A stretch of DNA of 64,000 nucleotides from an uncultured Gammaproteobacteria bacterium (GTDB lineage Bacteria > Patescibacteriota > Patescibacteriia > Magasanikbacterales > UBA922): assembly GCA_964394405.1 (NCBI GenBank), contig CAYMVY010000002.1:92-64091 (forward strand), in the 5' to 3' direction. The notes under the pieces are model-generated. The model saw nothing but the letters and a program-made list of their open reading frames with translations, searched no databases and was not told the origin of the DNA. The translations under genes and the position numbers were made by a program. Below are positions 48,420-64,000 of this stretch, piece by piece; the stretch's first letter is position 1; every line of letters starts with the position of its first letter.

Positions 48420-51206
48420 ATGTCATTTTTACACAAATTGTTTCCAGATCAGAATAAGAAGGTGATCAAAAGTCTGCAACCATTGGTTGATCGTATCAAT
48501 CAGCTTGAAGTTGAATTCGAAAAAATATCAAACGATGGAATAAAGGATAAAACTACTGAGTTCAAATCCAGGCTTGAAAAAGGTGAGACACTTGATGATC
48601 TATTACCTGAAGCATTTGCGACGGTGCGTGAAGCAGCAAAGCGTACACTCGGTATGCGACACTATGATGTGCAGCTCATCGGAGGTATCACGCTTCATCG
48701 TGGACGAATTGCTGAAATGCGCACGGGTGAAGGAAAAACACTCACGGCTACACTTGCAGTCTATCTTAACGCGCTTTCAGGCAAAGGCGTGCATTTGGTT
48801 ACCGTGAATGATTATTTGGCAAAACGCGATGCGGTGTGGATGGGGCAGATTTATGATTTTTTGGGAATGTCTATTGGAATTGTGCAGAATCAGCGGGTAA
48901 GTTTTGTCTATGACGCAAGCGCAAAAGCTACTGAAGAGGGAAGTGAAGCGGACAAAGAGCGAGATGAGGAAGGTAGTTTTAAAGTTGAAAATGAATATTT
49001 GAGACCAGCCTCTCGTCAAGAGGCGTATCGCTGTGATATTACGTACGGAACTAATAATGAATTTGGGTTTGATTATCTTCGCGACAACATGGTGCAGCGA
49101 ATCGAAGATATGGTAATGCGTCCAGGGAGTGAAATGAGTTATGCAATTGTTGATGAAATCGATTCTATCTTGATTGACGAAGCGCGAACTCCATTGATTA
49201 TTTCTGCTCCTGCTGAAGAAGCAACTGATCAGTACTATCGATTTGCTGATTTGGTAAAAATGCTTACGTTGAATGAAGATTATAATCTAGATGAAAAATT
49301 ACGAAGTGCAACTCTGACCGGAGAGGGTATTGCAAAATTTGAAAAATGGTTGAATGTCGATAATATCTATGTCGAAGGTGGTATCCGAACAGTGCATCAT
49401 ATTGAGCAGGCTCTCAAAGCAGAATTTTTATTCAAGAGGGATAAAGATTATATCGTTGATGGGAAAGAAATTATTATTATTGATGAATTCACGGGACGCA
49501 AGATGCCGGGTCGACGATATTCTGAAGGATTGCATCAGGCGATCGAAGCAAAAGAGCGGGTACCGATTCAGAAAGAGAGTAGAACGCTTGCAACAATTAC
49601 GTTCCAGAATTTATTCAGAATGTATGACAAGCTGGGCGGAATGACAGGTACCGCAAAGACCGAAGAAGAGGAATTTTTCAAGATTTATGGACTGGAAGTG
49701 ACAACGATTCCGACCAATAAACCTGATAATCGCAAAGATCATCCTGATCGGATTTACAAAAATAATAAAGGAAAATACAAAGCCATTGTAGAAAAGGTGC
49801 AGGAAGCTCGGGCAAAGGGGCAGCCCGTACTTATTGGTACGATTTCGGTTGAAAAGAATGAAGAATTGAGTGCCTACCTCTTTGGTCAGGGAATTGAACA
49901 TGAAATTTTGAATGCAAAGAATCATGAACGTGAAGGAGAAATTATCGCGCAGGCCGGTCGTCCAGGTGCCATCACTCTCGCTACCAACATGGCAGGACGT
50001 GGTGTCGATATCAAACTTGGCGGCGTCCCTGCAGTCGAGGAGGATGTGAAGAAAGTGGTAGAGGCTGGAGGATTGTTTGTCCTCGGAACTGAACGACATG
50101 AGTCACGACGCATCGATAATCAGCTTCGCGGACGAAGTGCTCGTCAGGGAGATCCGGGTGAGACTCAGTTTTTTGTGTCTGCAGAAGATGATCTCATGCG
50201 CGTCTTTGCGGGTGATCGATTGAAGAGTGTGATGACACGGTTCAATATACCGGACGACATGCCAATTGAGCAGAAGATGATTACTCGAATTCTTGAAAGC
50301 GCACAGAAAAAAGTAGAATCACATCATTTTGATACTCGAAAACATTTGCTTTCATATGATGACGTATTGAACAAGCAGCGTGATGTCATCTACAAGAAAC
50401 GTCGAGAGATTCTTGATTCTGCTAAGCGAGAAATTGATGCTGCAGCGGGGGATAAGGATACACTTCCTCCAGAACTCGCACCTCGACCACTTCGGGATAT
50501 TATTCTCGAAATGGTAGATCAGGAAATTGAGACTGTGGTATCGATGCATACTAGTGCTGAAGATGAGACAGAGTGGAATACCAAAGAGATTGTCGAGAGT
50601 ATGTCTGCGATGATGCCTCTTGAAAATACTGATAAATCAAAAATCGAATCAGTTATCGCTTCTGCAACAAAGGAAAATAAGAATCCGATTGAGGTTAGAA
50701 ATGAGGTTGTAGAAAATCTAGTTGCCAATGCTCGTCGTGCGTATGATGCTTTTGTAGCTTCGCTTGAGAAAATCCAACCAGATGCAAAACTTCGTACTCA
50801 GATGGTCTCTGAAGTGGAGCGCGGGGTGTTGCTTCGCACTATTGATATGATGTGGGTTGATTATCTGATCACTATCGATCATCTTCGCGCGGGGATTGGA
50901 TTGCAGGGCTATGGACAGAGAGATCCATTGGTTCAGTACAAACAGGAGAGTTTCCATCTTTTCAATCGACTGCTTTCGGGAATTCAGCGGGAAGTCGCAA
51001 ATACGATATTCAAAGTTCATGCAGGAATTCAGCTTTCTCCATCGGTTATGGCGACTGATGTCATGACACTGGGTGGCGCGCAGAAAACTGCAAAATCAGA
51101 AGTGTCTGGATCTGGAGTAGGGAAACCGGGGGATGGGAAAGTAGGGCGGAATGATCCCTGTCCGTGTGGTTCTGGCAAAAAGTATAAGAAGTGTCATGGG
51201 GCGTGA
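48420..51206 (+). CDS. secA: Preprotein translocase ATPase SecA
   Basis: DEAD-like motor ([32 protein letters not shown]). C-terminal zinc finger [14 protein letters not shown]. Confidence 0.95.
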
Positions 51207-53616: not shown

Positions 53617-55665
53617 ATGAGCTATAGAAATAAAGACATTCGATCGAAAATTAAGTGGGGGATTGCAGGTATATTAGTGTTATTAGTTGTATCAAGCGGT
53701 TTTGTGTATCCACAACCACTCAATGCAGTAATTTCACGGCTTAATTCTGTTGCTAAATTAGGGCTTCCTCAGATTCCTGAAACCCCATTCCAGCTCGGAT
53801 TGGATTTGCAGGGTGGAGCTCATTTGGTATATGAAGCAGATATGAGTGCGATTCCTGAGACTAACCGTGCAGATGCTCTTGAGGGTGTGCGTGATGTGAT
53901 TGAGCGTCGTGTGGGAGGAATCGGAGTTTCTGAACCACAAGTACAGACAGGTAAAGTCGGCGATTCATATCGATTGAGTGTTGATTTGCCAGGAATTGGA
54001 AATGTTGAAGATGCAATTAAACTTATTGGTCAGACACCTATTTTGGAATTTAAAGAAGAAAATAAAGAAGCTCCTCGTGATCTCACTAAGGATGAAGAGG
54101 AGTTCATGAAGACATATAATGCTGAGGCAAAGAAAAAAGCTGAAGATATTTTGAAACGTCTCAAGAAAAAGGAAGTGTTCGAAGATCTTGCAAAAGAACT
54201 TTCAGAAGATGAGCAGAGTAAAAATAATGGAGGATATCTGTCATATGTGAATTTGAAAAACATGTATGCGGAGATTTATGACTGGGCAGCAAGTTCGACT
54301 GAAGGGTCGATATCATCACGTGTTATAGAAGCTCCAGATGGATATAATATTTTGAAACGCGGTAAAGAGCGTGATGGTGGAAAAGAAGCGCTTGCAAGTC
54401 ATATTTTGATTTGTTATTTGGGTGCAGTGAATTGTGACGCTCCGATGTTTAACAAAGATGAAGCGCGCGCAAAAGCACAGGAAATTTATGACAAAGCTAC
54501 TGGTGATAATTTTGCGACACTTGCTGAAGAGAATTCAACTGATCCTACCGTGTCCCTCAATCAGGGTGATTTGGGTTGGGTTCCTACTGGTATTATGGTC
54601 CCCGAATTTGAGAACGCTTTGTTCGGATCTGAGAAAGGTCAGATTATTGGCCCAGTCGAAACTCAGTTTGGTTTTCATATTATTTACAAGAAAGATGAAC
54701 GGGTTTCAAAAGAATATGAAGTATCTCGCATCTTGATTAAAACTCATACCAAAGAAGATCTCGTCCCTCCGGTAGATCAGTGGAAAGAGACGGGATTGTC
54801 AGGAAAACAATTGGCTCGTGCAGAGGTAGTCACTGATCAGCAGACTGGTGCGGTACAAGTTGCTCTTAATTTCAACGAAGAGGGTACCAAATTGTTTGCT
54901 GAAATCACTGAGCGCAATCTTAATAAGACTGTTGCTATATTTCTCGATGGCGAAGTAATCAGCGCTCCGACAGTACAGGCAGTCATCCGTGATGGAAAAG
55001 CTGTTATTACTGGTGCTGGAAATATACAGGAGGCGCGTCTTTTGACACAGCGCTTGAATGCGGGAGCGCTTCCAGTTCCTGTTGAGCTTGCAAGCCAGCA
55101 GAAAGTGGGTGCGACATTGGGTGCAGAATCAGTTGCAATGAGTGTAAAAGCAGGAGTCGTGGGTGTGATTATCATTATGTTATTCATGATTCTCTATTAT
55201 CGCCTGCCAGGATTTCTTTCAGTTATCTCATTATCACTCTATATTGTTGTGACTCTCTCTATTTTCAAACTGATCGGTGTCACGCTTACTCTTGCGGGTA
55301 TCGCAGGATTTATTCTGTCGATTGGAATGGCGGTTGATACCAATATTCTCATTTTTGAACGTTTGAAAGAGGAGTTGCAAAGAGGAAAAAGTCTCAAAGT
55401 TGCGGTTGAAGAAGGATTCAAACGAGCATGGACTTCGATTCGAGATGGTAATGTCTCAACGCTTATTACTTGCGTACTTTTGATTTGGCTCGGCACAAGC
55501 TTTGTAAAAGGCTTTGCAGTAGCGCTTATCATTGGTGTATTGGTAAGTCTGTTTAGTGCGATTACTGCAACTCGTGTAATGCTCCGATTTGTGGTGCCTT
55601 GGTTTACCAAACGCGATGGTGGAAAGTTATTCCTCGGCAGTGGCCATTCTACTGAACAAAAATAA
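53617..55665 (+). CDS. secD: Protein translocase subunit SecD with an inserted PpiC-type (parvulin) PPIase domain
   Basis: SecD N-terminal TM and P1 domain, C-terminal 6-TM core. A central ~100-aa segment ASHILICY...GDLGWVPTGIMVPEFENALF...IGPVETQFGFHIIYKKDE matches the parvulin signature. Confidence 0.8.
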   Translation: MSYRNKDIRSKIKWGIAGILVLLVVSSGFVYPQPLNAVISRLNSVAKLGLPQIPETPFQLGLDLQGGAHLVYEADMSAIPETNRADALEGVRDVIERRVGGIGVSEPQVQTGKVGDSYRLSVDLPGIGNVEDAIKLIGQTPILEFKEENKEAPRDLTKDEEEFMKTYNAEAKKKAEDILKRLKKKEVFEDLAKELSEDEQSKNNGGYLSYVNLKNMYAEIYDWAASSTEGSISSRVIEAPDGYNILKRGKERDGGKEALASHILICYLGAVNCDAPMFNKDEARAKAQEIYDKATGDNFATLAEENSTDPTVSLNQGDLGWVPTGIMVPEFENALFGSEKGQIIGPVETQFGFHIIYKKDERVSKEYEVSRILIKTHTKEDLVPPVDQWKETGLSGKQLARAEVVTDQQTGAVQVALNFNEEGTKLFAEITERNLNKTVAIFLDGEVISAPTVQAVIRDGKAVITGAGNIQEARLLTQRLNAGALPVPVELASQQKVGATLGAESVAMSVKAGVVGVIIIMLFMILYYRLPGFLSVISLSLYIVVTLSIFKLIGVTLTLAGIAGFILSIGMAVDTNILIFERLKEELQRGKSLKVAVEEGFKRAWTSIRDGNVSTLITCVLLIWLGTSFVKGFAVALIIGVLVSLFSAITATRVMLRFVVPWFTKRDGGKLFLGSGHSTEQK

Positions 55666-55670
55666 TACCT

Positions 55671-56600
55671 ATGAATATTTCCTTTGTTTCAAAACGAAAT
55701 TATTTCTTCTTGATCTCGATTGTATTTGTTGCGGTGAGTATCGTAAGTCTCATTATGTATGGTCTCAAACCAGGGATTGATTTTACGGGTGGCACCTTGG
55801 TTGAGTTGAAATTTACTCATGAGAGGCCAACTCTTTCAGAGATACAAGAAATTGTTCCTGAGTCGACCTATGGATCAAGTATTATCCAGTCTGTTGGAGA
55901 CATGGGATATCTGTTGCGTCTACGCTTTATCTCGGAAGAAGAACATCAGCAGATTCTTGCGAGTGCTCGGGAAAAATTTGAAGTAGCGGGAACAAGTGAA
56001 ACTCCTGAGAATCGAGTTCTTGAGGAAAGTATTGAGACTATCGGTCCTGCAATCAGTGAATCTCTGAGAGAGCGATCGGTCCAGGCGGTGATTGCGGTTT
56101 TACTTACGATTGGTGCCTATATCGCGTATACCTTCAGAAAAGTTTCACGTCCAGTCGCTTCGTGGAAATACGGACTTGCTGCTATTATCGCACTTTTCCA
56201 TAATATACTTATTACGATTGGTGTTTTTTCTCTTTTGGGACATTTTCATGGCGTAGAAGTCGGTATTTCGTTTGTACTCGCACTTCTCACGATTCTTGGT
56301 TTTTCGGTACACGATACTATTGTGGTGTTTGACCGTATTCGAGAAAACCTGAATCGATATGGGGCAAATGAGTTTGAGTCATTGGTCGATCGAGCGCTTA
56401 ATGAGACTTTTGTCCGTTCGATTAATACTTCGATTACGGTATTGATTGTATTATTCTCACTTTTTGTATTCGGAGGAGAATCAATCAGATACTTCGTACT
56501 TGCGCTGATTGTGGGCATCTTCTTTGGAACATATTCTTCGATTTTTATTGCGTCACCACTTTTGGTGGTTTCACATCGGTTGTCACGGAAGAGAGCGTAA
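55671..56600 (+). CDS. secF: Protein translocase subunit SecF
   Basis: LKPGIDFTGGT.., a 6-TM core, and its position after secD. Confidence 0.9.
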   Translation: MNISFVSKRNYFFLISIVFVAVSIVSLIMYGLKPGIDFTGGTLVELKFTHERPTLSEIQEIVPESTYGSSIIQSVGDMGYLLRLRFISEEEHQQILASAREKFEVAGTSETPENRVLEESIETIGPAISESLRERSVQAVIAVLLTIGAYIAYTFRKVSRPVASWKYGLAAIIALFHNILITIGVFSLLGHFHGVEVGISFVLALLTILGFSVHDTIVVFDRIRENLNRYGANEFESLVDRALNETFVRSINTSITVLIVLFSLFVFGGESIRYFVLALIVGIFFGTYSSIFIASPLLVVSHRLSRKRA

Positions 56601-56922: not shown

Positions 56923-58362
56923 ATGGATTTTGGCTTGTTTACCTTTAATTTTTCAGACATTTTTTCGTTTCTTGATCAACCGACATCGAGTATTTTTATT
57001 CAGTTATTTGCCATTATCCTCTGGGTTCCCTTGGTAAATTTTTTGTTGATGGAAATTCTAAACACATTCCACCATTATCGCGTCCATCAATCTACCCACC
57101 ACTGGAAACATGTAGTTCTTGCAATCGATATTCCACAGCTCAATGTACAGACGCCAAAGGCGGTAGAGCAGCTTTTTTCTCATCTTGCTGCAGTATTCAG
57201 TAAGCCTGATCTCAGAGAGAAATTTATTGAGGGATATCAACAGAAGTGGTTTAGTTTTGAAATTATTAGTATTGAGGGGTACATACAATTCCTCGTATGG
57301 ACCGAAGAGCAATATCGAGATTTGATGGAAACAGCTATCTATGCCCAGTATCCAGAAGCTGAAATTACTGAGGTAGAGGATTACGTATCGTTTGCCCCTG
57401 ATACCTATCCTAATCAGGAATATGATATTTGGGCGGGTGAATTCGCGCTTGCAGAAGATGCGGCTTTTCCTATTCGTACGTATGAAGAGTTTGAACACTC
57501 TATTTCAAAGGATACGGTATTGAAGGACCCTATGGGTACGATGCTCGAAAGCTTTTCACGTATTGGACATGGAGAGCAGATGTGGTTTCAGATTTTAGTC
57601 GAACCAATTGACAATGAGTGGAAAGAAAGCGTCATTGCAAAAATTAAAGAGTTTATTGGAGAAGAAGATGCACACGGACATGGACATGGATCACCATTGA
57701 GTTTTCTTACTGATAATTTTTTGGTAACTGAGGCAAAAGGTCTTTTACAAGAAGCGGGTAGGCAAGTGGCAGGAATGGGTGGGGGCGGGCATGAAGAACA
57801 CGCAGAAGAGAAGGTAGATAAAAATCAGCTCAAGTATATGACTCCAGGGCAAGTGAAGCTGGTCGAAGCAATGGAGAAAAAGATTCAGAAAATTGGATTC
57901 AAGACCAATATTCGTGCAGTCTATATTGCGCGTAAAGAAATTTTTAATACCGCACGCGGAGTTACTGCACTCAAGGGGTCACTTAGTCAGTTCAATATTC
58001 CGAGCGCAAATTCTATTGTGACTGAAAAAACAACAGGCGCGAGAAAGCCACAGGTGTCTAATAAGAAAAAAGCTACATATATTGCGGCGTATAAAAAACG
58101 CAAGATGGGTCTTGAAGTAAAACCATTTGTTCTGAATATCGAAGAGCTGGCGACACTCTGGCATTTCCCAATGTCACATGTGAAGACGCCTTTGCTTCAG
58201 AAGGCATCAAGCAAGGCTGCAGAACCGCCTTCTGGATTGCCGGTGGAATTTGTACCCGCTCCTGTTGCCGAAGCTCCTACGACCCATGCAAATGGCCAAA
58301 AAAAGCGTATTGTGACTGATTCGGGTGAGGAGATTGTGACAGATGAGGAAGAGTACGGTTAA
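56923..58362 (+). CDS. Hypothetical membrane-anchored protein (479 aa) with His/Gly-rich segment
   Basis: N-terminal TM. No P-loop. HGHGHG and GMGGGGHEEH segments. Family not recognised. Confidence 0.5.
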   Translation: MDFGLFTFNFSDIFSFLDQPTSSIFIQLFAIILWVPLVNFLLMEILNTFHHYRVHQSTHHWKHVVLAIDIPQLNVQTPKAVEQLFSHLAAVFSKPDLREKFIEGYQQKWFSFEIISIEGYIQFLVWTEEQYRDLMETAIYAQYPEAEITEVEDYVSFAPDTYPNQEYDIWAGEFALAEDAAFPIRTYEEFEHSISKDTVLKDPMGTMLESFSRIGHGEQMWFQILVEPIDNEWKESVIAKIKEFIGEEDAHGHGHGSPLSFLTDNFLVTEAKGLLQEAGRQVAGMGGGGHEEHAEEKVDKNQLKYMTPGQVKLVEAMEKKIQKIGFKTNIRAVYIARKEIFNTARGVTALKGSLSQFNIPSANSIVTEKTTGARKPQVSNKKKATYIAAYKKRKMGLEVKPFVLNIEELATLWHFPMSHVKTPLLQKASSKAAEPPSGLPVEFVPAPVAEAPTTHANGQKKRIVTDSGEEIVTDEEEYG

Positions 58363-59350: not shown

Positions 59351-59384
59351 TTACCTCAGGTAAACGGTTTTTTGGTGTTAGTAT
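59351..59384. terminator. Rho-independent terminator (AACCGTTTACC-TCA-GGTAAACGGTT + T-run)
   Basis: aaaaaaccgtttacctcaggtaaacggttttttgg. Confidence 0.8.
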
Positions 59385-59507
59385 TGACAAACTTATGTCT
59401 TTTTGGTAGATTCATCTATCAACTATTGTCTACTGCGCTGGCTGTATAGTATGTACATCTGGCGCAGCCGGCAATCCCGCCATCAGAGGCTGCCAAGGAG
59501 AATCGAA

Positions 59508-59840
59508 ATGATTCACGTGTTCCGTCAGATGAGTGAATGGCATCACCGGTATCCTGAAAAGTGCGAAAAGACGATCCCTACTGATACAACGGTGGGTTCG
59601 GCTGAGTTCGCTCGTCTGCCTGACCTGGGACGTTGTCCCTCCTGTGTCGGGTATCTCTACGCCAAGGGGCGAGGACATCACGAGAGCATCTTCCATGCAC
59701 TCTGTCCGGTCGGAAGGCATCTGACTACCGTCTGCGGGAAGTCTGTCGGGATCAATGAGATTCCTCTCAAGGAGTTCCACATGCTCCCGCCTGAGCGTAA
59801 GTGTGAGAAGTGCGCTGAGCTCGTTCGTTCTTTCAAGTAA
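59508..59840 (+). CDS. High-GC Cys-rich (zinc-ribbon-like) hypothetical protein with SD AAGGAG
   Basis: CEK..CPSC..C..C..CEKC cysteine pattern. aaggagaatcgaaATG. GC clearly above background. Confidence 0.5.
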   Translation: MIHVFRQMSEWHHRYPEKCEKTIPTDTTVGSAEFARLPDLGRCPSCVGYLYAKGRGHHESIFHALCPVGRHLTTVCGKSVGINEIPLKEFHMLPPERKCEKCAELVRSFK

Positions 59841-60052
59841 TCGCAGTGGTCTGTCGGATGTGCTAGTTCTGCCTCAATCGTGATCATTGCGTGGTCGCTC
59901 CCGAATGTTGTAAATATCTATAGATTGTAGAAAAAAAGAAAAATATTTAAAACATAACATAAGCGGCCGACGGGGGAAATGAGAAATTGATTGAATATTA
60001 CAAAACCCCGAAGCCAAATATTATTTTGTTCACTACGAAGTAATTGAGGATT

Positions 60053-60080
60053 AAAAAACACCCGCATTAAGGTGTTTTTT
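60053..60080. terminator. Terminator hairpin ACACC-CGCATTAA-GGTGT + T-run
   Basis: aaaaaacacccgcattaaggtgtttttt. Confidence 0.6.
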
Positions 60081-60095
60081 AATTTTAGCTGATTA

Positions 60096-60155
60096 TTTTT
60101 AGTTTTAAGCTTTAAGTTTCAGTTTTGAATTTTGCGTTTTTAGTTTTGAACTATA
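60096..60155. repeat. Half copy of the AAACTCAAA/TTTGAGTT element family (copy 4)
   Basis: agttttaagctttaagtttcagttttgaattttgcgtttttagttttgaactata. Its reverse complement contains aaagcttaaaact and aaaacgcaaaa, as in copies 1-3. Confidence 0.6.
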
Positions 60156-60641
60156 AAATCGTACTGCTTCAATTCCTCCGACCAATACTCCCGTATAGAA
60201 GAAATCACTCAATAAACTATTTCGGAAGAAGGGGAGAGCGAGGTAGTAGCTTTCCATAAGTCCGGCAATAGTTCGTGGGTAGAGCGCGCCAAATGCCCAG
60301 ACCATGGTATTAGTGACGAAGTAGAATAGGATCGAGCTTGCCAGGGTAATTCCAATTATTGTCCCAACATTTTTGTGCTTTTTTGCCCAGGTACCAAAAT
60401 AGGTTGTGGCAAGCAAACATCCGTATACTGATACCATGACTAGTGGATGGTAGAAGCCAATGAATAGATCGCTTACGAGCATTGCAGTCATTGGCACGAT
60501 ATATGCCAGTTTGCGGGGTAGATATAGCCCTCCTACGAGTGCTAGGGCGGTAATTGGTACAAAGTTTGGGCTATGCGGCATAAGGCGTGCTAGGACCCCG
60601 TATGCTGCCAAAGCGATGACTAGGATAAGGTATTTTTTCAT
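60105..60641 (-). CDS. Small polytopic membrane protein
   Basis: 178 aa, 5-6 TM helices. Immediately downstream of the surface-protein pair. Resembles the sizes and topology of ECF-transporter S components. Confidence 0.4.
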   Translation of the reverse strand: MKKYLILVIALAAYGVLARLMPHSPNFVPITALALVGGLYLPRKLAYIVPMTAMLVSDLFIGFYHPLVMVSVYGCLLATTYFGTWAKKHKNVGTIIGITLASSILFYFVTNTMVWAFGALYPRTIAGLMESYYLALPFFRNSLLSDFFYTGVLVGGIEAVRFYSSKLKTQNSKLKLKA

Positions 60642-60666
60642 AGTGAGTAGATTATATCATCAATGC

Positions 60667-62853
60667 TTATTTTTTTGAAGACTTCCTGCTTATACCCATA
60701 TATCCGGTGAGCAGGATGAATATGGTAAGTGATATGATGAATATATATGTATTTGTATTACTTTTGGGTTTGGGTGTTTCTATTACCTCGCCTTGATCTT
60801 GTAGTTCTATCACTTCTTCGGTAAGCGGCTGAGTATTTTTCTCTTCTACTATTTCTGTATTTTCAATTCTCTCTCCGAGTACTACAGGTTCCCGATATGT
60901 GACAACTTGTATTGTATTCGCTTCCTCGGGTACTATCACATTTTCTTCTTCTATTACTACCGCGACTTCAGGAGTGGAAGTAGTGATTGGGTTTTCTGTC
61001 TGAGTTGTTGTGACAAAAATGGTAGAAGTAGTAACTGGTGCGGTTGATGTGACTGTTGGAGTTGGAGTGGTGGTTGTCGTAGTACCAATTGCCCCGGTAT
61101 TAGTTGGGTTCTGTACTGTGCTTGGTTTGTTGAAACCGGAAAGAATCGACCCCCATTTTTTTTCGAGTACACCAGGAATTGCGTATGACGTAGCCCAAAT
61201 TCGATTGGTAAGTATATCACCAGACAAAAGTCCGCCATCAGTGTCCTGGTTTTTAGTAATATAGGTTATTCCAGAATTGTCTCCCATTTTCCATGTTTCT
61301 GCAGTTTCACCAAGTGCCTGAATTGCCTGAAGTGTCCAACCGGTTGCGTATACATTTCCAAAACTTCCATCAGTTCCTTGAATTGATTTGAGATATGCTT
61401 TTGCTTTTGTAAGTGCTTCTTCTACACCAGAAATACCTGAGGTCATAGAAAGTGCCTGGATTCCGGCTGCAGTAAGGTCGACTGAGCCAAATGATCCGAC
61501 CTGATTTTGACTTGCAATAATATGTTTTGTCGTGCTTACGATTAGTTGATCCTGCGCTGTATAACCGGCTTTGAGTAGAGGAACGAGAGCAAAGATGTCA
61601 TCGTTCACCAGTCCGGCATCCCCAAATTGGTTACCGTCATATCCGTCGAGAATGGCTTGAATGTAGTTGGTTTTGGTTCCGGTGTAGGGATTGATTCCAA
61701 GAGACATTAGACCCATTGCGCGACGTGCATAGTTGGTCGTGTGGTTGGGGCCATCAAGCGGATTTGGATCTGTAAGTAGATATGTTGAAAGTTTCGATTT
61801 ACCCATTTGTTCACCAGTCCAGGCGCCGTATGCAATTGCAGCCCAGTCGCTCACGAATGCGCTTGATCCGAATGATCCATCGGCGTTCTGTTTTGCGTCA
61901 AGAAACGCAATCATCTGTTCTACTGGATTCTTGGTGGTGCAACATGAACCACCACCTCCGCTCCCTCCGCCTGGGCTGGTCGGCGGGGGAGTTACTGGAA
62001 TTTCTCTAGCCGTAATGGTGCGTTCTGTGGTTACATATCCTGATTTTGACACTAGAATAGTGTAGGGCTCTACGGTGGTTATTGAGAGTGTTGTTGTGTT
62101 TGAACTTGGTATTTCTTCTATACCGTTTATACTGATAGTTGAATTAGTACTCGGAAGCCATACGGGATTCCACGATGTATCAAGACCAAATTCGTAGATC
62201 GAAACGATTACTGAATCTCCTACGTGCGGAGAGGTTGTAGAAAGCTCGATTTTGAGAGGAATCGTATTGTATTGAATTAGTATCTCATCCCCTTCGATTA
62301 GGGTGTATGCATTTAGAGCAATTGATCCATATTCCAGATTGATAAAATACCCCCAGAAATTGTTTGCACTAAAATCATTGTGTACACCATTGATCGAATC
62401 AAGGAATGCATCAGTGCCAAAGAAATTCCAGGTTGAGGTTAATCCCGGTGCCTGATCCACCAGACATTTTGCATTGAGTGTGTATTCTGTTGATGCTTCA
62501 TATGGTTTACAGGCAGTGACGGTAAGAGTCTCGTTAAAGAGAATGTTTCCATTTGCTACTACATACAGCCGCGCAGAAACAGTTGGGAGTGTTGTTGTAG
62601 GTGTTGCTATTATTTCTTCTGTCACCTGTGCATCAGTCGAGGTCGTGGTAGTTTCTTGTAGGTCTTCTGTTTGAATTTCTTCTATTTCGAGTAGAGGAGC
62701 TTCTTCTATTTCTTCGGGTGCGGGTATGTTTTCTGGAATTTCTATACTCTCTGGTGCTGTTGTTTCGGGAATTGCGTCTTCTGCATGTACTGATACAGTT
62801 ATTGAGAAAGACAGTGCAAGGATAATGAATAGGCTAGAGTATTTCTTTTTCAT
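60667..62853 (-). CDS. Cell-surface protein: signal peptide, DUF4430-like beta-domain, alpha/alpha-toroid domain with QxDGSFG repeats, Thr-rich stalk, C-terminal TM anchor
   Basis: MKKKYSSLFIILALSFS signal. Repeats QNADGSFGS, QNQVGSFGS, QGTDGSFGN, QDTDGGLLS. Stalk TTTTTPTPTVTSTAPVTTST. C-terminal IFIISLTIFILLTGYMGISRKSSKK. Confidence 0.6.
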   Translation of the reverse strand: MKKKYSSLFIILALSFSITVSVHAEDAIPETTAPESIEIPENIPAPEEIEEAPLLEIEEIQTEDLQETTTTSTDAQVTEEIIATPTTTLPTVSARLYVVANGNILFNETLTVTACKPYEASTEYTLNAKCLVDQAPGLTSTWNFFGTDAFLDSINGVHNDFSANNFWGYFINLEYGSIALNAYTLIEGDEILIQYNTIPLKIELSTTSPHVGDSVIVSIYEFGLDTSWNPVWLPSTNSTISINGIEEIPSSNTTTLSITTVEPYTILVSKSGYVTTERTITAREIPVTPPPTSPGGGSGGGGSCCTTKNPVEQMIAFLDAKQNADGSFGSSAFVSDWAAIAYGAWTGEQMGKSKLSTYLLTDPNPLDGPNHTTNYARRAMGLMSLGINPYTGTKTNYIQAILDGYDGNQFGDAGLVNDDIFALVPLLKAGYTAQDQLIVSTTKHIIASQNQVGSFGSVDLTAAGIQALSMTSGISGVEEALTKAKAYLKSIQGTDGSFGNVYATGWTLQAIQALGETAETWKMGDNSGITYITKNQDTDGGLLSGDILTNRIWATSYAIPGVLEKKWGSILSGFNKPSTVQNPTNTGAIGTTTTTTPTPTVTSTAPVTTSTIFVTTTQTENPITTSTPEVAVVIEEENVIVPEEANTIQVVTYREPVVLGERIENTEIVEEKNTQPLTEEVIELQDQGEVIETPKPKSNTNTYIFIISLTIFILLTGYMGISRKSSKK

Positions 62854-63418
62854 AGTTCCACATGATTATGTCGTTTGGGTTAAGTATGAGTGTTGATATT
62901 CCTTTGTTTGATTTTTTGCCATTGATGTAGAGTATCCAGTACATTTTTTCTCTAGTATTTTCTGCTATTCCATTGATTGATTTCACAAATGTGCCGAGAT
63001 CTCCACCATATTCAATGCTTTCGTACCAGAATGATTCAGGGTATCGTGAATGCGCATCTTTCATCGCACTTTCTGCTGACAGGTTTTCTTGATAGGGAAT
63101 ATGTAAGTTTTTTCCGTTTATTTGCAGTGTTATTTTTGTTTTGAATATTTCTTCTTGGTTTATTTCAGTAGTTGTTGGAGTGTCTGGTTCTGTACCGGTG
63201 CCAGTAGTTACTGTTTGTGTGGTAAGTGGTAGTTGGTAAGTGGTAGCTGGCTCAGTTTTATTTTGTTCATCATCAATTTTTACTTCTCTAATTATTTCTT
63301 CTTCCTTCTCTGGAATTTTGAAATTTTGATTTTGAACTTCGCTGTTCCATAAGTATCCACTCACGAGTGTTGCGGTACCAAAGATGGTAATGAGAAAATA
63401 TAGTAGTTTTTCACGCAT
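62834..63418 (-). CDS. DUF4430-domain protein with N-terminal membrane anchor
   Basis: ITLQINGKNLHIPYQ...WYESIEYGGDLGTFVKSINGIAEN...MYWILYINGKKSNKGISTLILNPNDIIMWNY matches the DUF4430 pattern. Confidence 0.6.
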   Translation of the reverse strand: MREKLLYFLITIFGTATLVSGYLWNSEVQNQNFKIPEKEEEIIREVKIDDEQNKTEPATTYQLPLTTQTVTTGTGTEPDTPTTTEINQEEIFKTKITLQINGKNLHIPYQENLSAESAMKDAHSRYPESFWYESIEYGGDLGTFVKSINGIAENTREKMYWILYINGKKSNKGISTLILNPNDIIMWNYEKEIL

Positions 63419-63686
63419 AGATACTTGTAGACAAAAAAATTCCCCTGAGCTGAGGAATGTCTATGTTGGTACATGGCGGTATCAAAAAATACCTATGTAC
63501 TGGTTCCTGCTCGGGATAACACACATTCTACAAGATCGGACTTTTACCGTTGCGGCACAGTCAGGGAATTACACCCTGGTTCCAGTAGAATAGGTTTTTG
63601 TTGTAAATAACAGGTAAATTGTATCAGGTATGTGCCTGATGTCAAACAGTCATAACTGTTGTTAAAAAAGGGATTTTTTGATATCC

Positions 63687-63736
63687 TGTGGATAACTTCA
63701 CTAATCTTGACAAAAAGTCTGGAAATGGGGTATTAT
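63687..63736 (+). promoter_or_regulatory. Perfect DnaA-box 9-mer (TGTGGATAA) followed by a sigma70-like promoter (TTGACA N18 TATTAT) in a 400-bp AT-rich intergenic region
   Basis: tgtggataa at 63687-63695. ttgaca at 63707-63712. tattat at 63731-63736. Confidence 0.4.
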
Positions 63737-63823
63737 CCTATGTCTTTTGGTGTGCGTTTATCTGGAATCTTTCTATATAGACGCGCGTCAAACGAATTGG
63801 CGCGGATATTCGGGAGGGGGTAT

Positions 63824-64000
63824 ATGTCCCTGTGGCAATTGTGGAGGCGCGTTCACTGCGCGTTCAAGAAGAAGTTCGGCGTCGAGTTCCGGGCCGAGCG
63901 AAGGGCTGAGGGTGTCAGCGTGATGCGGGTCGAGTACCGCGGTCAGGAGATGTCCGTGGTGTGGGATTTCGTGAGGTCTCCCGGGTTCGTCATCCTCGAG
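63824..64000 (+). CDS. High-GC hypothetical ORF (5' part; runs off the window end) with SD GGGAGGGGG
   Basis: gggagggggtatATGtccctgtggcaattgtgg... GC ~60%. Confidence 0.4.
   Translation, partial: MSLWQLWRRVHCAFKKKFGVEFRAERRAEGVSVMRVEYRGQEMSVVWDFVRSPGFVILE

Follow-up and report, generated by a model that had tools for sequence, protein, structure and literature searches.

A probable cobalamin-repressed operon for corrinoid capture and import, combining two SLBB surface proteins with a DUF6580 membrane protein in Patescibacteria

A three-gene cluster on the minus strand of contig CAYMVY010000002.1 was analyzed as a probable operon for corrinoid capture and import in a Candidatus Magasanikbacteria-like member of the Patescibacteria; the 64,000-nt stretch of this contig that was covered is referred to as the window. 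In the order of transcription the genes encode (i) a small surface protein of 194 aa (63418..62834); (ii) a large surface protein of 728 aa (62853..60667); and (iii) a DUF6580 membrane protein of 178 aa (60641..60105). These open reading frames (ORFs), and the slight overlap of the two surface-protein genes, which amounts to 20 nt, were found as described in a first-pass annotation made from the sequence alone, in which the cluster had been put forward as a possible corrinoid-capture module. That idea gained support from a cobalamin riboswitch that immediately precedes the first gene, a feature that the first-pass annotation had not seen. The 728-aa protein was also found in identical form on a 257,560-nt NCBI contig and on a Logan contig in which the genes are ordered likewise, and its close homologs carry the names Candidatus Magasanikbacteria or Patescibacteria.

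Scanning of the whole 64 kb with Rfam returned a single match, a cobalamin riboswitch aptamer of the AdoCbl-II class (RF01689; 63591..63525, minus strand), which scored 44.6 bits (E = 1.8e-7) against a gathering score of 36.5 bits. The aptamer lies on the operon strand, 107 nt 5′ of the ATG of the 194-aa gene and 27 nt 3′ of a sigma-70-like promoter sequence (63618..63645, minus strand). This sequence, TTGACA-16 nt-TACAAT with a TG before the −10 element, agrees with the consensus at 11 of 12 positions, is the best of the region and presumably serves as the operon promoter. The aptamer is followed by a predicted expression platform (63432..63524, minus strand) in which nested stem-loops lead to a terminator-like hairpin (63458-63439) and a run of seven T residues that ends ~20 nt before the ATG at 63418; this hairpin was the only terminator-like site called in a terminator scan of 59.8-64 kb. 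When the platform was folded, segment 63513-63502 was predicted to be able to pair alternatively with the terminator stem, a candidate basis for switching. At the 3′ end of the cluster, the sequence holds an intrinsic-terminator-like hairpin (AACACC/GGTGTT) with a T-run (60052..60076, minus strand), and this hairpin was kept through differing sequences in the related loci L002, L003, and L004 (alignment columns 49-78). Because the hairpin and T-run follow the DUF6580 gene and are kept in relatives despite sequence change, the three genes are taken to form one operon. A possible internal promoter, TTCAAA-17 nt-TATAAT with a TG (60651..60679, minus strand; agreement with the consensus at 10 of 12 positions), stops 10 nt short of the ATG of the DUF6580 gene and may provide additional transcription of this last gene.

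Relatives of the 728-aa protein were detected on 379 stretches in a one-genome-per-species collection, and the loci analyzed here are the best 80 of these 379, with gene content determined by simple ORF calls and by hidden Markov models built from our own alignments. Nearly all of the loci that carry a lineage name belong to Patescibacteria lineages. In L001, L003, L004, L006, and others, the proteins are 55-65% identical to those of the window and the gene order is the same. The aptamer hardly varies among L001, L003, L005, and L006, where one base pair has undergone a compensatory change. The riboswitch census was performed at Rfam gathering thresholds on 75 of the 80 loci; a covariance model of our own, derived from five AdoCbl-II aptamers, was dropped as too narrow (the five are 92% identical), and calls against all of Rfam were used instead. 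A cobalamin-clan riboswitch was identified in 23 of the 75 scanned loci, with three families represented (RF01689, RF01482, and RF00174), and every one of the 23 was on the operon strand. Each of the 20 riboswitches that were mapped lies directly 5′ of the small SLBB gene, with the large gene next in line and most gaps measuring 3-92 nt, and the coordinates of the other three fit the same position. A looser regular expression detected the core motif where a riboswitch would be expected in three further loci. Since three aptamer classes share one position across lineages whose proteins are only 35-65% identical, chance is ruled out as the source of this association. Two loci, L047 and L063, were informative as to which genes are under control: their order is nrdJ, DUF6580, riboswitch, small gene, large gene. 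Because the RNA sits between the DUF6580 gene and the small SLBB gene in these loci, the riboswitch is concluded to control the surface pair itself, with DUF6580 outside its control.

The gene set was found to recur with some variation. The large gene, encoding a beta domain (with or without an immunoglobulin [Ig]-like domain) and a toroid, was present in all 80 loci, a beta-only paralog was adjacent on the same strand in 64, a DUF6580 gene was adjacent in 52, and both were adjacent in 44; as the same set returns across 80 species-level loci, this is not a chance arrangement. Two gene orders prevailed, namely small-large-DUF6580, as in the window, and nrdJ-DUF6580-small-large. The most frequent neighbor besides the operon genes was NrdJ (22 of 80 loci), a protein of ~764 aa with ATP-cone, ribonucleotide reductase (RNR) alpha, RNR barrel, and class II "B12-dependent RNR insertion" domains. 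A PduO-type cobalamin adenosyltransferase was encoded inside the cluster in six of the loci, and at least one independent B12 marker was present in 41. Furthermore, a sample independent of the toroid was obtained by picking DUF6580 genes by DUF6580 homology alone (L087, L088, L089, and L090). In this sample, L089 and L090 encode, in order, NrdR/ATP-cone, a ribonucleotide reductase with a TSCPD domain, PduO, DUF4430, and DUF6580; L087 encodes a toroid protein with a dockerin, a 236-aa protein, DUF4430, and DUF6580, flanked by two B12-binding radical SAM enzymes; and L088 has a B12-binding radical SAM enzyme two genes from DUF6580. From the riboswitch, nrdJ, and pduO context, the SLBB/DUF4430 proteins are predicted to bind cobalamin.

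Both surface proteins were examined for domain content and placement relative to the membrane. By Pfam, profile, and hydropathy analysis the small protein (62834..63418, minus strand) consists of an N-terminal transmembrane (TM)/signal anchor, a Thr/Glu-rich linker, and an SLBB/DUF4430 beta-grasp domain at aa ~92-194, with hydropathy placing its one TM segment at aa 5-23. The large protein (60667..62853, minus strand), as analyzed by Pfam, AlphaFold2, Foldseek, and hydropathy, is composed of a signal peptide, an acidic linker, an SLBB/DUF4430 domain, an Ig-like domain, a Gly/Pro linker, a toroid, a Thr-rich stalk, and a TM anchor. DUF4430 (PF14478; gathering score 23.8) was confirmed by Pfam in both proteins, at 55.0 bits (E = 1.2e-14) in the small one and 37.2 bits (E = 4e-9; aa 147-196) in the large one. 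An AlphaFold2 model of the large protein, restricted to aa 85-600 (trimmed) and computed with 47 homologs as input, had a predicted local distance difference test score (pLDDT) of 90.5 and resolved a beta domain followed by an Ig-like sandwich, with a disordered Gly/Pro linker leading to an all-helical toroid. In terms of coordinates (minus strand), the SLBB/DUF4430 domain spans aa ~86-200 (62254..62598), with strands at trimmed residues 7-120 of the model, and the Ig-like beta-sandwich spans aa ~205-290 (61984..62241; all-beta at trimmed residues 121-200). The latter domain was absent from the first-pass annotation and was added from the model; the beta+Ig unit is doubled in the large protein of 17 of the 80 loci. 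The alpha/alpha toroid spans aa ~310-574 (61132..61926; helices at trimmed residues 226-486), and the Thr-rich stalk and acidic spacer (aa 576-700) are followed by a TM anchor (aa 701-723) with a basic tail (together 60685..61128). Composition and hydropathy agreed with the Thr-rich stalk, C-terminal TM anchor, and anchored small protein of the first-pass annotation: 23 Thr residues fall within aa 575-640 of the large protein, the N terminus of which (aa 4-25) is signal-like and the C terminus of which carries the TM segment. By their predicted signal peptide, anchors, and stalks, both binders are placed outside the membrane. Within the beta domain of the large protein, the Cys residues at aa 115 and 130 (C31 and C46 in alignment A1) are nearly invariant. 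About nine loci (L047, L048, L058, L063, and others) were also observed to encode, after the large gene, a ~125-aa thioredoxin-like protein and a ~184-aa DsbB-like membrane protein; along with the two near-invariant Cys residues, these genes suggest a dedicated extracellular disulfide formation for the binder.

Sequence matches to PDB entries were significant only when family profiles were used, as single-sequence PDB searches with the window proteins returned nothing significant. With the small-protein profile (n = 49), the top five PDB matches were the beta domains of transcobalamin and intrinsic factor, at marginal E-values of 0.006-0.04, with profile positions 73-169 aligned to transcobalamin 309-408 such that the whole beta domain was covered. 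The toroid was less specific. Foldseek matched it to chains of complement C3/C4/C5 and alpha-2-macroglobulin that contain TED domains, to a polysaccharide lyase, and to terpene cyclases at E-values of ~1e-7 to 1e-6, and to intrinsic factor and transcobalamin at E ~1e-5, with TM-scores normalized to the target of 0.41-0.49. Among 47 family members examined with Pfam, SQHop_cyclase_C was detected in 41 and Cobalamin_bind in 33 (E ≤ 1e-3, best 4.3e-9), and the SQHop_cyclase_C match of the large window protein was, like its Cobalamin_bind match, below threshold. Because the TED and cyclase matches equal or beat those to transcobalamin and intrinsic factor, the toroid is a member of a broad six-hairpin superfamily and not specifically transcobalamin-like. 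Thus, of the transcobalamin-like two-domain makeup proposed in the first-pass annotation, the domain types and the beta domain stood, but the toroid was not specific and the order, beta-Ig-toroid, was reversed; likewise the structural search recovered both transcobalamin and intrinsic factor, but with TED domains and terpene cyclases at similar scores. The four Q-x-DGSFG repeats proposed earlier were found as four copies within the toroid, of the form Q-x-x-[DV]-G-[SG]-[FL]-[GL] at aa 322, 449, 492, and 536, but with the spacing off by one residue; two are strict QxxDGSFG and three have GSFG.

The toroid matches raise the question of whether the large protein is instead a generic adhesin, or a thioester (TED-like) or terpenoid-binding host-attachment protein, with DUF4430 and the neighboring genes unrelated to B12. 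The top Foldseek matches (complement and alpha-2-macroglobulin TED chains and terpene cyclases), the best profile match (squalene-hopene cyclase), and the combination of Ig-like domain, stalk, and anchor that is typical of adhesins would all fit such a protein. Sequence motifs did not: no CGEQ thioester motif was found in the large protein, whose sole Cys residues are at aa 115, 130, 304, and 305, and no D.DD occurs anywhere in it, with V-D-L-T-A standing in the family where the cyclases have DVDDTA. An extracellular site also argues against prenyl-diphosphate chemistry, and an adhesin would leave the riboswitch and the linkage to nrdJ, pduO, and DUF6580 unexplained. On balance, we consider an attachment function of this type highly improbable compared with corrinoid capture.

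The third gene product (60105..60641, minus strand) was identified by Pfam as a DUF6580 protein (PF20221, E = 1.7e-45) and is a candidate corrinoid transporter. The size of an energy-coupling factor (ECF) S-component, attributed to it previously, was borne out: the protein has 178 aa, and its AlphaFold2 model (pLDDT 93.4) has six TM helices in an S-component-like arrangement. The best solved-structure match of the model by Foldseek was cobalamin-bound BtuM (8c7p and 8ovv; cyano-/hydroxocobalamin), with a TM-score of 0.71 and a root-mean-square deviation of 3.4 Å over ~177 columns, followed by the S-components PanT, RibU, ThiT, and FolT. At the sequence level, the single PDB match of the DUF6580 family profile was CbrT (6fnp_A; E = 5.7e-6), which aligned to profile positions 4-87, the N-terminal half. 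The aligned CbrT fragment belongs to Pfam family ECF_trnsprt (PF12822); the window protein matched PF20221 only, with no match to PF12822, and one homolog (P0163) matched both. Overall, the model and profile support an S-component fold for DUF6580, nearest to BtuM in structure and to CbrT in sequence. The BtuM of Thiobacillus denitrificans (PMC6072759; 8C7P and 8OVV) is like DUF6580 in having six helices and ~180 aa, and neither has an ECF module nearby, which for DUF6580 refers to the 64-kb window and to the surroundings of the cluster in the 80 loci. However, the two are only 16-17% identical with no sequence-level detection, and the invariant, cobalt-ligating Cys80 that defines BtuM, a protein found mostly in Proteobacteria alongside BtuB (PMC6072759), is not conserved in DUF6580; the column that holds Cys75 of the window protein is Cys in only 23% of DUF6580 sequences. 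As the cobalt-ligating cysteine is not conserved, DUF6580 is not regarded as a member of the BtuM family.

The identity of the ligand was considered in light of these results, as the system could instead scavenge another tetrapyrrole, such as heme. A preprint (10.1101/864751) models heme in the transcobalamin-like Lsa1839/Lsa1840 of a Lactobacillus sakei ECF-like operon tied to heme uptake, and cobalamin as the ligand of the window proteins is itself a prediction. Counter to heme, three cobalamin riboswitch classes lie directly before the surface-protein genes, the clustered enzymes are B12-specific (NrdJ, PduO, and B12-radical-SAM), and the proteins that match the transporter best, in structure as well as in sequence, themselves transport B12. 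With these three lines pointing to cobalamin, we view a heme-specific system as very unlikely.

A closer alternative leaves corrinoid capture to the surface pair and reassigns the membrane protein: DUF6580 would either need an ECF module (EcfA/A′/T) encoded elsewhere or carry a B12-related lower ligand or precursor, with the true permease elsewhere. The relationship of its profile to CbrT, which on its own gives no B12 uptake (PMC5997447), and the match of homolog P0163 to ECF_trnsprt are consistent with this alternative, as are (i) L047 and L063, in which DUF6580 is kept outside riboswitch control; (ii) the surface pair without an adjacent DUF6580 gene in 28 of the 80 loci; and (iii) distant DUF6580 genes without B12 context. 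The alternative is countered by the solitary transporter BtuM as the closest structure and by the scarcity of candidate ATPases, with no ABC ATPase signature in the 64-kb window and ABC-like ORFs in 3 of the 80 loci, none of them adjacent to the cluster. It is also countered by the tight linkage of DUF6580 to DUF4430, nrdJ, and pduO in the toroid-independent loci. We regard this reassignment as a possible, though not the favored, account of the third gene. Three distant DUF6580 genes from outside Patescibacteria had no clear B12 context and no riboswitch, and since such members show no B12 context, the B12 role is not to be stretched over the whole DUF6580 Pfam family.

Taken together, the data favor a cobalamin-repressed operon for corrinoid capture and import in a B12-auxotrophic Candidatus Magasanikbacteria-like Patescibacteria cell, a reading to which we assign a probability of roughly 80%. 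According to this model, transcription would proceed from the sigma-70-like promoter through the AdoCbl-II riboswitch. When cobalamin is sufficient, the liganded aptamer would favor the terminator-like structure and the operon would be off; this OFF direction is inferred because cobalamin riboswitches generally behave so. When cobalamin is scarce, the two stalked proteins would be displayed outside the single membrane of an envelope assumed to have only one. The large protein combines a predicted beta-grasp and toroid, the two kinds of domain between which transcobalamin and intrinsic factor enclose B12, and by analogy the two proteins together could capture corrinoid, whether free or derived from a host, and transfer it inward, with the small, membrane-proximal, SLBB-only paralog perhaps relaying the ligand. 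DUF6580 would then import the corrinoid, either alone like BtuM or with an ECF module encoded elsewhere. In related lineages, PduO would make adenosylcobalamin, and the class II ribonucleotide reductase NrdJ would use cobalamin.

Several observations weigh against this reading. The toroid is ambiguous: in the Foldseek ranking, intrinsic factor and transcobalamin do no better than TED domains and cyclases, the toroid family profile matched squalene-hopene cyclase at E = 1e-11 versus 3.5e-3 for intrinsic factor, and the window protein scored 22.3-23.4 bits for Cobalamin_bind (PF01122), under the threshold of 25. The domain order is reversed with respect to transcobalamin with an Ig domain in between, and the predicted TM-score of 0.64 for the large-protein model means that there is no confident inter-domain packing. 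As to the membrane protein, the invariant cobalt-ligating Cys of BtuM has no conserved counterpart in a 40-sequence alignment of DUF6580, CbrT is inactive without its ECF module (PMC5997447), the DUF6580 genes outside Patescibacteria behave as noted above, and the adjacent gene is missing in 28 loci. A threshold-level riboswitch was present in only the 23 loci described. Moreover, no B12-dependent enzyme, adenosyltransferase, or ABC/ECF gene was detected in the 64-kb window or in 9 kb beyond it, among the Pfam matches listed (25 of 89 families) or in motif searches, and no binding or transport has been demonstrated for these bacterial families in the literature searched.

A more far-reaching version of the corrinoid operon would be a complete, minimal B12 import route, in which the two-protein stalked surface trap feeds a solitary, ECF-free DUF6580 that binds B12 without the BtuM cysteine and, in many lineages, supplies an essential class II RNR. 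We offer this version tentatively, as it is appreciably less probable than the operon reading itself. If true, it would represent an import route unlike BtuBFCD, ECF-CbrT, BtuM, and BacA, drawing corrinoids from the surroundings or straight from the surface of the host cell; it would make the DNA synthesis of an episymbiont dependent on borrowed B12; and it would provide an experimentally tractable prokaryotic relative of the transcobalamin/intrinsic factor system of animals.

The BtuG and BtuH proteins of Bacteroides are surface B12-binding lipoproteins that provide high-affinity corrinoid capture, feed a transporter, and are encoded in riboswitch-controlled loci; their folds are unrelated to the transcobalamin-type domains, and they operate in an outer-membrane system with the TonB-dependent BtuB. 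The animal carriers transcobalamin, intrinsic factor, and haptocorrin (PF01122 and PF14478; PDB 2BB5 and 2PMV) have two domain types in common with the window proteins. Transcobalamin differs in that it is soluble with the toroid followed directly by the beta domain, whereas the window system is membrane-anchored, has the order beta-Ig-linker-toroid, and includes a second, beta-only protein. The closest precedent is a prediction. Burroughs, Balaji, Iyer, and Aravind (2007, Biol Direct 2:4; PMC1796856) defined the SLBB superfamily and proposed bacterial transcobalamin-like surface proteins as B12 scavengers, so that the first-pass annotation arrived anew at an idea already in print. The class described there includes fusions of SLBB to the toroid on either side, Ig domains, a second SLBB paralog, CbiO/CbiQ genes, and hosts without B12 synthesis, and the window proteins fit it point by point (surface location, SLBB with a C-terminal toroid, Ig-fold, and paralogous SLBB gene). 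The operons reported there encode a CbiO-like ABC ATPase and CbiQ-like proteins, whereas the window operon has DUF6580 with no ABC/ECF gene nearby. The nrdJ-pduO-DUF4430-DUF6580 clusters of L089 and L090 follow the same logic as the nrdJ-cbrS-cbrT-pduO cluster of Lactobacillus delbrueckii, which led to the discovery of CbrT as the S-component of ECF-CbrT (6FNP; PMC5997447). CbrT belongs to PF12822 and requires an ECF module, in contrast to the window protein, which matched DUF6580 only and for which no ECF module was found in the window.

The literature searched contained no experimental follow-up of the 2007 prediction, no paper on DUF6580, and nothing on B12 uptake in Patescibacteria. Three aspects appear to be new: (i) DUF6580 as the membrane partner that replaces an operon-encoded ECF module; (ii) direct riboswitch control of the surface pair by three cobalamin classes; and (iii) the spread of the system and its linkage to nrdJ/pduO in Patescibacteria. 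Few microbes synthesize B12, many require it, and its uptake shapes microbial communities. Through the cobalamin riboswitches and B12-dependent enzymes, the operon and its ~380 relatives provide the most direct support so far for the 2007 prediction and give the uncharacterized family DUF6580 a testable role as a B12 permease. The findings also suggest that many Patescibacteria, while unable to make cofactors, invest in dedicated B12 scavenging, often beside the ribonucleotide reductase for DNA synthesis, which would bear on their host dependence and on culturing attempts. In addition, the system may offer a bacterial model for the origin of animal B12 carriers.

The DNA flanking the operon was also surveyed. 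On the minus strand, ~100 nt after the operon terminator (~59930-60050) are almost invariant in the window, L002, L003, and L004, and contain a long hairpin, CGGCTTCGGGG ... CCCCGTCGGCCG, with a T-run after it; a small RNA or regulatory element may be encoded here. Next to it, past the operon terminator, is a GC-rich island (59380-59920; 47-60% GC versus ~41% for the genome), which is found at the same place in L002, L003, and L004 with 68-74% DNA identity and in which no ORF with a Pfam match, no tmRNA, and no Rfam family were detected. A structured RNA was considered for this island and rejected, as there was no tmRNA, covariation was weak, and the pattern of substitutions and gaps fits a small protein gene on the opposite strand. 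This pattern, an AAGGAG 8 nt before an ATG at ~59508, and a CxxC...CxxC arrangement suggest a putative plus-strand gene for a Cys-rich protein of ~110 aa, the leader of which is more conserved than its coding part. A second GC-rich island (63790-64000 and beyond, the latter at L081 8000-8900; 55-64% GC) lies 5′ of the riboswitch promoter, has two ORFs of 142 and 100 aa without Pfam matches, and could be foreign DNA. The two islands were compared as related repeats or mobile-element ends and found to be unrelated. Between the upstream island and the operon promoter is a perfect DnaA-box consensus, TTATCCACA (~63685-63695, minus strand); GC skew was positive over the whole window, and no other sign of a replication origin was seen.

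Among the other genes, a DUF8128 gene (56923-58362, plus strand) was observed that also occurs near the B12 cluster of distant Patescibacteria (L089 6039-8387 and L090 5904-8258), where it forms a fusion with a TraG/TrwB-like coupling-ATPase region. In ~10 of the 80 loci, the cluster has a homologous gene of ~479 aa next to it, which may reflect synteny or function. Upstream are the genes for SecA (48420-51206) and for SecD and SecF (53617-56600), with SecD being unusually long (682 aa) and having an extra central region. The remaining window genes are of housekeeping type, including those for serine hydroxymethyltransferase, CTP synthase, DnaB, several glycosyltransferases, and NUDIX proteins. 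In two of the related loci, group I catalytic introns were detected just 3′ of the cluster on the minus strand (L053 7805-8054 and L057 7802-8051, at 61 and 69.5 bits, respectively).

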